Shown here piece by piece: positions 19,397-21,546 of a stretch of 64,000 bases of DNA; the stretch's first letter is position 1; each line of letters begins with the position of its first letter. Below the pieces are notes generated by a model. It had not been told where the DNA came from. It saw nothing but the letters and a program-made list of their open reading frames with translations, and searched no databases. Made by a program: the position numbers and the translations under genes. The stretch spans positions 57 to 64,056 of the forward strand of contig JBGGMJ010000092.1 of assembly GCA_041288095.1 (NCBI GenBank), read 5' to 3'. The DNA is from Myxococcota bacterium. GTDB lineage: Bacteria; Myxococcota; XYA12-FULL-58-9; JALHOP01.

Positions 19397-19645
19397 TCAG
19401 TCCAGCAGTTTGGGCGCGTAGGGTCGCAGGCTTGGGCCTGCCATGGCCACTCGAAGATCGGCGGCACAAACCGGGCCCTCGAGCGTCCGGCCACGATTGC
19501 CGAAGCTGCTGGTCACGTCCCGGCGCACATGGGGGAGGGCGGCTTCCGGGCCCTCGAAGGCGAGAACGCCGTAACCCTCCGGATCATCGATATCCAGGAG
19601 GACCTCGACCGTGCCGGCGAAGGTGGTCAGTGCGTAACGAATCAT
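19397..19645 (-). CDS. Small protein (82 aa) translationally coupled to the HExxH protein; possible inhibitor/immunity or chaperone
   Basis: ATG at 19645-19643 overlaps the TGA of the upstream 634-aa ORF (ATGA). The product is acidic (MIRYALTTFAGTVEVLLDIDDPEGYGVLAFEGPE..). No family was recognised. Confidence 0.45.
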   Translation of the reverse strand: MIRYALTTFAGTVEVLLDIDDPEGYGVLAFEGPEAALPHVRRDVTSSFGNRGRTLEGPVCAADLRVAMAGPSLRPYAPKLLD

Positions 19646-21546
19646 GACGTCAGCCACCCCAGCACGAGGCAGAAATGCTCGACGTCATGCGCGCAAAGCC
19701 GCGCGGCCGAGTAGGTCGATGCGAAGTGCTGAAAACCGACCGACATCATCTCGGTGCTGCCGCTTGGGATGATCTTCCCAGCGTAGCCCGTGATGAATCC
19801 GCCATCGACAGCCATGGCGTCGTCCTGGATGCCCAGCGTGCGCAAGCTCACCCGCGCTTTTCCGGCGCCGCGCCGATCGCGTAGCTCGGTGCAGGCGGCG
19901 CGCAGCTCGGGGTCCGAGTGCTCGGCCAGGTGACCCAGCTCGTGGAAGACGTCTTCACCGGGATTGACGGCTCCGGGGGACTTCAAGAGGGCGACGAGGT
20001 TGATGGTGCCTGTCTTGACGATGGCCTCGGAGGTATCCCCGGTTGCATCGAGACGGTCCAAGCAAGCGATGCCCCGCCCGTCAGTCAGCCAAAGCGCCCG
20101 CCGCAGGTAGTAATGAAGACCGCTGTAGCTGGAGACCGCGGCGTCCGTCATATGGACCGTGTCCGCTAAAACAGAGTATGCTGTTTGCTCGTCGGAGTTG
20201 TAAGGGAACGCCGCGGCGAAGAGCTTGTCCATTTCCTTCATCGCGACGCCCATCGCGGCGCCTGTTGCGACGCTGGTCTCGGCGCTCGGCGGTTTTTCCT
20301 GGCGGCGCGCGAGCTCCAAGCGTCGCAGCTCGTTCGTCGCCGCGAGCAGCTCCGGCGTGAGCAACTTTTGGCCAGCCTTGATGAGGTCGTTGGCGTTTCG
20401 CCGGATGCGCGCCGCCGCCAGCGCGACGGAACCATCGGGACCCGCGACTCCGTTATCACGGAGCGCATCGGCGAGCACTTTGTGGCCGTCGCGCTCGAGC
20501 GCGGCCAGGGTTTGTGCGTCGACTCGCGGCGTTGGCTGCCGCAACGCGGCACGCAGGTTGCCGAGCGGCGTTCCGAGGCGCGCGTCGTTCAGTCGGTTCG
20601 CGGCGGCTGCGTACGCGCGCGCCTGAACGAGGCTCGCCGCGCCGTAGACGACTGGGTCTTCGCTGGTCGAGCCGACGCGGCGCAAGGCTCGCGCGAGAGC
20701 ACCGGTGATGTCGAGACGACCGTTGGCGATCGCGGAATCCATGTTGGCCCGGAGTGGCGCGCTCATGTCCGCCAACGCGATCGCCCCCGCCACGCGGCTG
20801 AGCGGTATCTCGGCGAGCTCCGGCATCTTGTCCGCATTGACGCCGCGGGTGATGAGCTCGAGGTCGCGCAGACCGCGCTGCGCGGCGAGTTGCTCGGCGA
20901 ACCTAGGCGACTTCGCCAGCGCTTCGATGTTGTCCACCGTCCGCGGGGAACTGATGTTATCGAGGGCACACTCGAGACATCTCTCGATGGCCCTGGTGTC
21001 CGGGTCGTGCATGCGCACTTCGGCGGCCCTGCCAGCGCGCAGGAGCCAGACCGTGGTCGAGAGGTGCTTGAAGTTCTCCGCGAAGACTTCGAGCCCGATA
21101 CCGTTGGAGAGCGGCGCGGCGGGCGGCTTCTTCGCACGCGCGCCCGTGATCCAGTCACGCTGCTCTTCACTGAGCTGGTACGGCATTTCGAACAGCCCCG
21201 TGCCGCCGAACAGCCCCCGCGGGGCTCGACGCGACGTCGCGGCGGGCGTGCCGGTCGCCATCTTCTGGGGCTCAGAGAGCTCGTGCACCGAAGCGAAGCC
21301 GCCGGCGCGCATGCCTTGGGTCGCGACATCGTGGGGTCTGGTCGACGACGGCGCGTCCGCGAACATCGCGGCGACGCGGCTGAACTGGCGGCGTTGGACC
21401 AGGTCAACGACGCGCCCGAGCGCCAGGTCGTTGGCCGGTACGCCCCGCGTCTTTGCGATGTCGACGAGCTGCTTGGCGCGGGCATCGTCGGTGCCGCGGG
21501 TCTCAGCCCAGATGGTGCGCAGGATGAGGTTAGTGACCAGGGTCAA
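19642..21546 (-). CDS. Hypothetical 634-aa protein with C-terminal HExxH zincin motif; candidate metalloprotease effector
   Basis: FHELGHLAEH is encoded at 19930-19947 (minus). Candidate downstream acidic ligands include ..GSTEMMSVGF... There is no signal peptide. The gene is inserted between the fliG-like gene and sctL. Confidence 0.55.
   Translation of the reverse strand: MTLVTNLILRTIWAETRGTDDARAKQLVDIAKTRGVPANDLALGRVVDLVQRRQFSRVAAMFADAPSSTRPHDVATQGMRAGGFASVHELSEPQKMATGTPAATSRRAPRGLFGGTGLFEMPYQLSEEQRDWITGARAKKPPAAPLSNGIGLEVFAENFKHLSTTVWLLRAGRAAEVRMHDPDTRAIERCLECALDNISSPRTVDNIEALAKSPRFAEQLAAQRGLRDLELITRGVNADKMPELAEIPLSRVAGAIALADMSAPLRANMDSAIANGRLDITGALARALRRVGSTSEDPVVYGAASLVQARAYAAAANRLNDARLGTPLGNLRAALRQPTPRVDAQTLAALERDGHKVLADALRDNGVAGPDGSVALAAARIRRNANDLIKAGQKLLTPELLAATNELRRLELARRQEKPPSAETSVATGAAMGVAMKEMDKLFAAAFPYNSDEQTAYSVLADTVHMTDAAVSSYSGLHYYLRRALWLTDGRGIACLDRLDATGDTSEAIVKTGTINLVALLKSPGAVNPGEDVFHELGHLAEHSDPELRAACTELRDRRGAGKARVSLRTLGIQDDAMAVDGGFITGYAGKIIPSGSTEMMSVGFQHFASTYSAARLCAHDVEHFCLVLGWLTS

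Follow-up and report, generated by a model that had tools for sequence, protein, structure and literature searches.

The minus strand of a 64-kb stretch of DNA from an uncultured soil bacterium of the Myxococcota (contig JBGGMJ010000092.1; the whole stretch of 64,000 nucleotides is called the window throughout) carries a block of type III secretion system (T3SS) genes, and inside this block, on the same strand, lies a variable pair of genes encoding proteins of 634 and 82 residues. The pair had been singled out from the letters of the window (referred to below as the sequence-only reading) as an HExxH-motif protein with a small coupled partner. Comparison with related loci reveals a new element, a swappable slot in a Myxococcota-type T3SS operon that carries a putative effector-partner pair. 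We consider it highly probable that the pair is a polymorphic cargo cassette consisting of a conserved zincin enzyme and its cognate coupled partner. With less assurance, we lean towards the complete statement that the large protein is a zincin effector exported by the T3SS and the small one an immunity-like (or chaperone) partner, the two together being polymorphic mobile cargo.

The limits of the module were defined by BLASTN comparison with the closest relatives, whose alignments break at window positions 21615 and 19408 and in which the intervening segment (21614-19409) has no counterpart. Empty slots, in which the FliG-like gene is followed directly by a gene for a single-transmembrane (TM) protein and sctL, were found in loci L002, L003 and L004 (FliG-like protein 97% identical to that of the window), L005 and L006 (93%) and L020 (96%). 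At these empty sites the palindrome CTGACACGCTGTCAG stands directly after the stop codon of the FliG-like gene, and the breakpoint in the window falls just before the same palindrome. The module shows neither a transposase nor terminal inverted repeats, and no clear duplication of a target site; at the junctions there is only microhomology. The sequence-only reading had described the pair as inserted between the FliG-like gene and sctL; the insertion is confirmed by its absence in relatives, but on the downstream side the 136-residue TM gene, which that reading does not mention, separates the module from sctL.

Three divergent alleles of the pair occupy the slot. The first is that of the window. 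The second, in L008, encodes proteins of 627 residues (44% identical) and 83 residues (73% identical) with a GTGA overlap between their genes. In the third, in L036/L037, the C-terminal 190 residues of the large protein are 50% identical with an intact HEVGH motif, the small protein is 67% identical, the genes again overlap by GTGA and SctL is 95% identical. In L015 (FliG-like protein 93%, SctL 92% identical) the small gene alone (59% identity) directly follows the FliG-like gene. A different cargo is present in L032 (L032:546-2378), from the metagenome-assembled genome of a more distant Myxococcota lineage, in which we found an unrelated 340-residue Cys-rich protein with a lipoprotein-like N-terminus; this content suggests that the FliG-like/sctL slot is a general cargo site. 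None of the 16 related T3SS loci among the contigs of species-representative genomes has the pair. The relatives all come from metagenomes, and several are short contigs.

The large proteins of the three alleles are 44-50% identical, and the SctL and FliG-like proteins encoded on either side are 92-97% identical. The ratios of non-synonymous to synonymous substitution rates (dN/dS, Nei-Gojobori), which are approximate because the synonymous divergence (dS) is saturated, were highest for the large gene (0.40), intermediate for close alleles of the small gene (0.11-0.25) and lowest for the FliG-like gene and sctL (0.03-0.08). Since dS reaches ∼1.5 in the module, near saturation, and 0.6-1.0 in the flanks, the alleles appear to be older than the surrounding operon or to have been imported into it. 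The gene for the 136-residue TM protein keeps its position in close relatives, with an identity of only 46-64% at the protein level as against the 92-97% of SctL and the FliG-like protein, and we therefore count it as belonging to the fast-evolving zone.

The enzymatic motif of the large protein, FHELGHLAEH, spans residues 534-543 (nucleotides 19947-19918), 101 residues from the C-terminus, in agreement with the ∼100 of the sequence-only reading; the coordinates that it gave, 19930-19947, cover FHELGH. The expected number of chance HExxH occurrences is 0.009 in 634 residues and ∼0.28 per window, so the motif by itself is weak evidence; the window contains two, the second being that of a peptide deformylase. 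A chance origin of the motif is ruled out by its conservation in relatives. An exhaustive HMMER search of 1.84 billion representatives yielded 442 relatives at E<=1e-3. One of them, P0121, is homologous over the full length (44% identity) and a few others over part of it; every other match is confined to residues ∼485-634. Among the relatives listed, 147 cover the site of the motif, and ∼143 of these have HE.(G/A)H at the aligned position. In an alignment of 41 sequences of the C-terminal domain (denoted A2), residues H539, E542, E599, G604 and D621 are invariant, and H535, E536, R559, Y588, G590, T598, S602, H624 and F625 are conserved in at least 90%. Conservation in orthologues and a zincin-like fold were two checks named in the sequence-only reading, which had also pointed to candidate acidic ligands downstream of the motif; the first is borne out by these counts, and a candidate ligand is provided by the invariant E599. 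By analogy with gluzincins and with the metallopeptidases of polyvalent proteins, which carry HExxH on a first helix, the Glu ligand on a second and variable inserts in between (PMC5512222), E599 would be the third zinc ligand.

The second check was supported by structure prediction. AlphaFold2 with alignment A2 returned a model of the C-terminal domain with a predicted local distance difference test score (pLDDT) of 95.3 and a predicted template-modelling score (pTM) of 0.90. The model comprises helices at positions 13-24, 65-80 and 136-143 and strands at 34-36, 43-45 and 50-52, and its zincin core is built of an N-terminal helix, a three-stranded sheet, the HExxH helix, an insert and the Glu helix. 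The HExxH motif sits in helix 65-80, and T598-E599 begins helix 136-143. In a Foldseek search of the PDB, the top 26 matches, all sub-significant, were to anthrax lethal factor (probability <=0.92), followed by minigluzincins. Predicted viral structures (BFVD) gave strong matches (E 5e-8, TMq 0.84), which include proteins annotated with a 'phage head morphogenesis domain' and entries that had been auto-named 'lethal factor'. A few relatives showed weak, scattered matches to M78, M91, DUF6782, SprT and M90, all of which are zincins. On this evidence we assign the C-terminal domain to the gluzincin-type metallopeptidases, within a clade that no curated family covers; it would bind zinc and cleave peptide bonds.

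In most relatives the domain forms the last ∼105-150 residues of proteins that range from 109 to 1,684 residues and whose N-termini are unrelated. Ten relatives were scanned for further domains, with Phage_Mu_F present in four (P0126, P0129, P0132 and P0135) and a portal domain in one (P0166). All 41 members of A2 matched phrog_20397, and 31 of the 41 matched a PHROG annotated as 'minor head protein'; none matched MPTase-PolyVal (PF18818) at E<=1. The domain was also found in phage genomes of GenBank, in Xanthomonas phage Rb1 adjoining an internal head protein and in PaV-LD within the 'virion structural protein' ORF081R. Apart from the window protein and its family, the clade is known mainly from the C-termini of phage virion proteins of the MuF, portal and polyvalent kinds, whose design serves delivery into other cells. 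MuF polymorphic toxins and polyvalent proteins are delivered with the phage head (Zhang 2012, PMC3482391; Jamet 2017, PMC5576092; Iyer 2017, PMC5512222); ∼20% of MuF toxins bear a metallopeptidase, most being followed by a small putative immunity ORF (open reading frame; PMC5576092), and the polyvalent-protein metallopeptidases unify with lethal factor (PMC5512222). The window protein is without a Pfam domain and so has no MuF, portal or virion domain; its neighbours are T3SS genes, and no MuF, portal or other phage gene, transposase or terminal repeat was found in or around the module.

Several lines of evidence establish that the large gene is real. Translation is assigned to TTG 21546, the first possible start, four codons past an in-frame TAG (21561-21559) and just downstream of a Shine-Dalgarno-like GAGGTG; the assignment is backed by the homologue in L008, whose N-terminus aligns with this start and whose own start is a GTG at the equivalent place. 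The G+C content at third codon positions (GC3) is 0.83, matching the neighbouring T3SS genes, and an overlapping plus-strand ORF of 486 residues shows the antisense pattern (G+C content at first codon positions, GC1, 0.83; GC3 0.69). GC3, dN/dS and the existence of homologues together exclude a spurious ORF of the kind common in high-GC DNA. The product, a 67.9-kDa protein with an isoelectric point (pI) of 8.2, is rich in Ala, Leu and Arg and contains no signal-peptide-like or TM segment (maximum Kyte-Doolittle value over 19 residues, 1.17), in agreement with the absence of a signal peptide noted earlier. It has no significant match in Pfam, NCBIfam, PADLOC or the sequences of the PDB. In 5.8 billion clusters, a word-indexed search found nothing either, the query protein included, and the identical fragments recovered by the exhaustive search measured only 87 residues (P0122) and 59 residues (P0124); gene calling in the source assembly may therefore have missed the gene in its full length. 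The 5.8-billion-cluster collection does contain the small ORF and the FliG-like protein of this contig. A scan of the contigs of 185,579 species-representative genomes with the large protein detected no relatives.

The sequence-only reading had found nothing recognizable in the long N-terminal region. This holds in that no known family is matched; the first ∼135 residues, however, are conserved and specific to the family. They are common only to the window protein, its L008 homologue, P0123, P0125 and P0130, none of which is a phage protein, and to judge from this conservation they are a candidate targeting or partner-binding region. Used as a marker, the region was found in none of the other ORFs of the window. 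The variable middle may be mostly helical according to a low-confidence single-sequence model; for the whole protein, single-sequence AlphaFold2 gave a pLDDT of 38.7 and an unusable model. Between the large proteins of the window and L008, the first 100 and the last 38 residues are ∼64% identical and the middle is 26-48% identical.

The overlap between the two genes, reported earlier as ATGA, is likewise real: at 19645-19642 the TGA of the large gene overlaps the ATG of the small one, and a four-nucleotide [A/G]TGA overlap is kept in the window, L008, L036/L037 and L012. The small protein had been called acidic, which is true only in a mild sense (pI 4.97, net charge about -3). It has only seven relatives among the 5.8 billion clusters and no match to any chaperone family, other curated family or PDB sequence. 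Its conservation, the third of the named checks, is evident from the coupling in the alleles of the T3SS slot and in L012 and from purifying selection (dN/dS 0.11-0.25, as given above). In L012 a 94-residue homologue (40% identical, E 4e-10) follows, with an ATGA overlap, the gene for P0130, a 539-residue member of the large-protein family; this contig has a GC content of 72% and no T3SS genes in 14 kb. Orphan copies of the small gene, 77% identical to that of the window, occur in L016-L019 (ten contigs from several samples; for example L016:616-945). They are preceded by a degraded remnant, ∼14 codons long, of the 3' end of the large gene, have unrelated non-T3SS flanks and lie near an AlpA-like gene; the dN/dS of the orphan relative to the window copy is 0.11. 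P0125, by comparison, has the degenerate motif FYLLGH and no partner gene. Pfam produced no matches for the genes flanking the modules of L016, L012 and L032. ORF082R of PaV-LD, a small ORF that follows the phage homologue, was considered as a homologue of the partner and rejected, as the two are not similar.

Taken together, the anatomy is that of a conflict cassette, in which a terminal enzymatic domain, taken from a pool that serves delivery into other cells, is joined by a small coupled partner; the alleles are hypervariable between conserved flanks, and both orphan partners and remnants of the toxin gene occur. Export by the T3SS is the simplest reading of the gene position because the module lies in the operon, on the same strand, 68 nucleotides after the preceding gene and without signals of its own; a sequence scan detected no promoter-like or terminator-like site inside the module, its leader included, and a homologous leader is also present in L008. 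In the mechanism that we propose, the pair would be co-transcribed with the T3SS genes, the large protein would be exported by the T3SS and would cleave a protein target in a recipient cell, and the 82-residue protein would bind the large protein in the producer cell. The suggestion of the sequence-only reading, an effector with an immunity protein or chaperone, was refuted by none of its three checks and agrees with the behaviour of the pair, which is polymorphic and present or absent between loci, with secretion by the T3SS suggested by position. The assignment of the small protein as a cognate immunity-type inhibitor is tentative and in our estimate falls just short of probable; it is favoured because orphans exist outside T3SS loci, because the pair also occurs in L012 and because MuF toxins provide a precedent.

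Several observations weigh against an exported protease with a dedicated immunity protein. With regard to the enzyme, no Pfam or NCBIfam family and no known metallopeptidase hidden Markov model (HMM) matches the domain significantly, the lethal-factor fold matches lie below Foldseek significance (E 0.08-0.8, TMq 0.36-0.52), and autoproteolytic roles have been proposed for polyvalent-protein metallopeptidases (Iyer et al., PMC5512222). With regard to export, no T3SS locus is visible around P0123, P0125 and P0130, and a search for RNA runs holding the stretch found none, the only runs being two of soil metagenome DNA. With regard to immunity, P0123 retains an intact HEVGH and yet has no adjacent partner, and the small-protein profile has no match in viral contigs or JGI metagenome contigs. 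Moreover, the small protein is 59-77% identical between alleles as compared with 44-50% for the zincin domain, a conservation nearer to that of the N-terminal 100 residues (64%), as would be expected of a chaperone-binding layout.

The last of these points bears directly on a second explanation, in which the 82-residue protein is a T3SS chaperone or adaptor that would bind the N-terminus of the effector, keep it secretion-competent and dock it to the sorting platform without inhibiting it. The protein is small, mildly acidic, adjacent to its effector, coupled to it and located within a T3SS operon. Chaperone function is favoured because conservation of the partner parallels the N-terminus and not the zincin domain, because in L015 the T3SS operon retains the small gene although the large one is missing, as might be expected if a chaperone served several cargoes, and because P0123 is partner-less. 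Against it, a length of 82 residues is short for a class I chaperone, which typically has ∼130 residues, and no chaperone family is matched; the pair exists in L012 as well, with no T3SS genes in 14 kb, and the orphan is maintained under purifying selection (dN/dS 0.11) next to an AlpA-like gene between non-T3SS flanks. We consider this explanation somewhat unlikely, and prefer the zincin effector with an immunity-like partner.

Less probable still is a passenger module unrelated to the T3SS, either toxin-antitoxin-like or a phage or polyvalent-protein remnant in a permissive site, which would act in the producer or leave it by another export route. The phage virion proteins that make up most of the domain's relatives, the non-T3SS contexts of P0123, P0125 and P0130 and the orphan near the AlpA-like gene are all compatible with such a module. 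The module itself, however, has none of the phage genes, transposases or terminal repeats looked for in and around it, and it follows the operon in orientation, begins 68 nucleotides after the preceding gene and brings no promoter or terminator. Exactly the same slot, between flanks that are 92-97% identical, is occupied by a small-gene-only state and by at least three divergent alleles, which points to long-term maintenance at this operon position; we therefore regard a passenger as quite improbable. Finally, the zincin might be a self-processing or maturation peptidase that cleaves its own polypeptide or a T3SS component or cargo under the regulation of the small protein, as the autoproteolytic roles cited above and the invariably terminal position of the domain, joined to long variable regions, would allow, but a core maturation role fits poorly with presence or absence among near-identical T3SS loci, no other recognizable effector domain that could be released is present in the window protein and strong allelic divergence is typical of conflict genes, so that we judge this very improbable.

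The putative zincin effector and its cognate partner are a credible and concrete first candidate for the cargo of a secretion system to which no substrate has been assigned, and the natural variants (alleles, orphan partner and empty slot) constitute a comparison set. The relatives of the domain (442 representative clusters at 50% identity) make up a widespread zincin clade without a name, by which proteins delivered with phage heads are connected to a bacterial secretion locus. The analysis also carries the toxin/immunity logic of the type V, VI and VII secretion systems (T5SS, T6SS and T7SS) and of outer-membrane exchange towards the T3SS. A bolder proposal, which we hold to be unlikely, is that the pair represents the first T3SS toxin-immunity cargo, an interbacterial, polymorphic metalloprotease toxin sent through a needle-less-type T3SS into prey or non-kin, with the 82-residue protein shielding siblings. 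If this were true, the operon would carry a swappable 'cargo slot', and the effectors of the predatory system known as T3SS* would gain a family and an N-terminal search marker. If secretion did not depend on the T3SS, what is left would be a toxin-partner cassette that is new and rare but belongs to a general kind already known.

The features of the module and of the genes around it are listed in Table 1. Further 3' in the block follow genes for YscO-like, FliK-like, FliM/N-like, FliO-like and SctR/S/T proteins; sctU, sctV, sctD and sctC were not seen within the 64-kb window, and no recognizable secretin or translocon was found in its T3SS cluster. The FliG-like protein has 141 homologues, in metagenome-assembled genomes (MAGs) labelled Myxococcota, Deltaproteobacteria or 'Bdellovibrionales'. 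The program-made ORF for sctL (18178-19032, minus strand, 284 residues) is probably too long; as judged from the gene as called in relatives, its true start is most likely 18873 (MGKVIKRG..., 231 residues). A sigma-70-like site is present at 18912-18884, near this start.

Table 1. Positions of the cargo module, its parts and the adjoining T3SS genes in the window
Feature	Position	Strand	Remark
SctI/SctF-like ORF, 163 residues	24126-23635	minus	weak SctI/SctF-like match only
sctJ	23545-22667	minus	
FliG-like T3SS gene	22637-21615	minus	upstream flank; Pfam FliG_M E 1.8e-6
Two-gene cargo module, 2.2 kb	21614-19409	minus	starts right after the FliG-like stop codon
Leader, 68 nucleotides	21614-21547	minus	from FliG-like stop to TTG start; GAGGTG just 5' of the start
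634-residue ORF (large gene)	21546-19642	minus	
N-terminal region, ∼135 residues (MT.V...LW.ET.GT ... GMRAGGFAS)	21142-21546	minus	family-specific, conserved
Variable middle, residues ∼136-464	20155-21141	minus	no recognizable domain
C-terminal zincin-like (gluzincin, lethal-factor-like) domain, residues 465-634	19645-20154	minus	as predicted
HExxHxxE motif, H535-E536-L-G-H539-L-A-E542	19921-19944	minus	active-site helix
Y588...T598-E599	19750-19785	minus	Tyr of PYVGK motif, 11 residues before invariant E599
82-residue ORF (small partner gene)	19645-19397	minus	
Palindrome CTGACACGCTGTCAG	19386-19400	minus	downstream junction; contributes the stop codon of the small ORF
Single-TM ORF, 136 residues	19354-18944	minus	between module and sctL; no family match
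sctL (FliH/SctL stator)	18873-18178	minus	downstream flank; 231 residues, as in relatives
sctN	18148-16805	minus	after sctL

Other parts of the window also contain genes of note. At 10514-13623 (minus strand) lies a second candidate coupled pair in the T3SS locus, in which the gene for a 779-residue protein (DUF4781 and a weak RelA_SpoT-like match, E 0.0076) overlaps by one nucleotide that for a 256-residue HD_4 protein (SpoT-type hydrolase); by analogy, the first protein would be a toxic alarmone synthetase and the second, as a hydrolase, its antidote. The interval from sctN to yscO differs among close relatives. A 673-residue protein without a family match is encoded directly after sctN (14711-16732, minus strand) and is another candidate for variable cargo; a 75%-identical homologue exists in L002/L021, and none is found at this place in L005/L006. 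Genes for a Kup potassium transporter and a GNAT acetyltransferase (6657-9985, minus strand) lie within the T3SS block between the FliK-like, YscO-like and FliM/N-like genes, an arrangement that is the same in L005/L006. Directly upstream of the block, a complete resistance-nodulation-division (RND) efflux set (24415-33504, minus strand) consists of an outer-membrane factor, two ACR_tran pumps and an HlyD-type adaptor; this neighbourhood is also seen in L002, L005 and L015.

Compared with known systems, the C-terminal domain is closest to the zincins of MuF and polyvalent proteins, being homologous to MuF- and portal-fused domains and to those of the 'minor head protein' PHROG, with which it shares the HExxH motif, the downstream Glu helix and the acidic residue three positions after the motif that marks the phage-type clade; as in MuF toxins, a small ORF is located directly downstream. 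It differs from them in that the window protein is found in a T3SS operon without a virion domain or phage neighbours, in that the MPTase-PolyVal Pfam model is unmatched and in that the family of the small partner is absent from the phage contigs scanned. Anthrax lethal factor (M34)/Tox-ALFMPTase offers the nearest solved fold, through sub-significant structural matches, and the same gluzincin-type HExxH...Y...E arrangement; unlike it, the window domain is much smaller (∼150 residues), shows neither a sequence match nor a match to the ATLF Pfam model, and would not be delivered by protective antigen.

The sequence-only reading had cited NleD-type proteins as an example of zinc metalloproteases among T3SS effectors. 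The comparison holds only as an analogy, NleD (Peptidase_M91) and HopH1-type effectors being HExxH zinc proteases delivered by a T3SS, but the domain falls into the phage MuF/polyvalent zincin clade. Membership of the NleD family (Peptidase_M91) was rejected: the window protein is unmatched, and three of the 41 relatives match weakly (best E 0.037). Effectors of the NleD/HopH1 type target eukaryotic hosts, and we know of none with a coupled downstream partner.

In its overall layout, the module is most reminiscent of polymorphic toxin-immunity cassettes, such as SitA/SitI, the T6SS/Rhs pairs and the orphan modules of contact-dependent growth inhibition (CDI) systems. Common to all are a shared C-terminal enzyme with unrelated N-termini, a coupled small gene, hypervariable alleles between conserved flanks, and orphan partners with 3' remnants of the toxin gene. 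The differences are that the delivery machine would be a T3SS, that the partner in the window is less diverged than the toxin domain and that toxicity and neutralization are putative. To our knowledge, no toxin-immunity cargo is established for a T3SS. Polymorphic effectors with cognate partners are well known for T5SS, T6SS, T7SS, Rhs proteins and myxobacterial outer-membrane exchange (PMC10433427).

The needle-less T3SS* of Myxococcus xanthus (MXAN_2434-2464), which serves contact-dependent predation, may provide the closest parallel for the machine itself. On the basis of gene content, by which alone the two are compared, the window holds a Myxococcota-type cluster that resembles it in having no recognizable secretin or translocon in the window, and that differs from it in the presence of FliG-, FliM- and FliO-like genes. 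Myxobacterial T3SS-like systems act in contact-dependent prey lysis; reviews describe their substrates, the effectors of T3SS* among them, as unknown, and speculate that the T3SS* effectors may resemble kin-discrimination toxin-immunity pairs (PMC10433427, PMC12428579).

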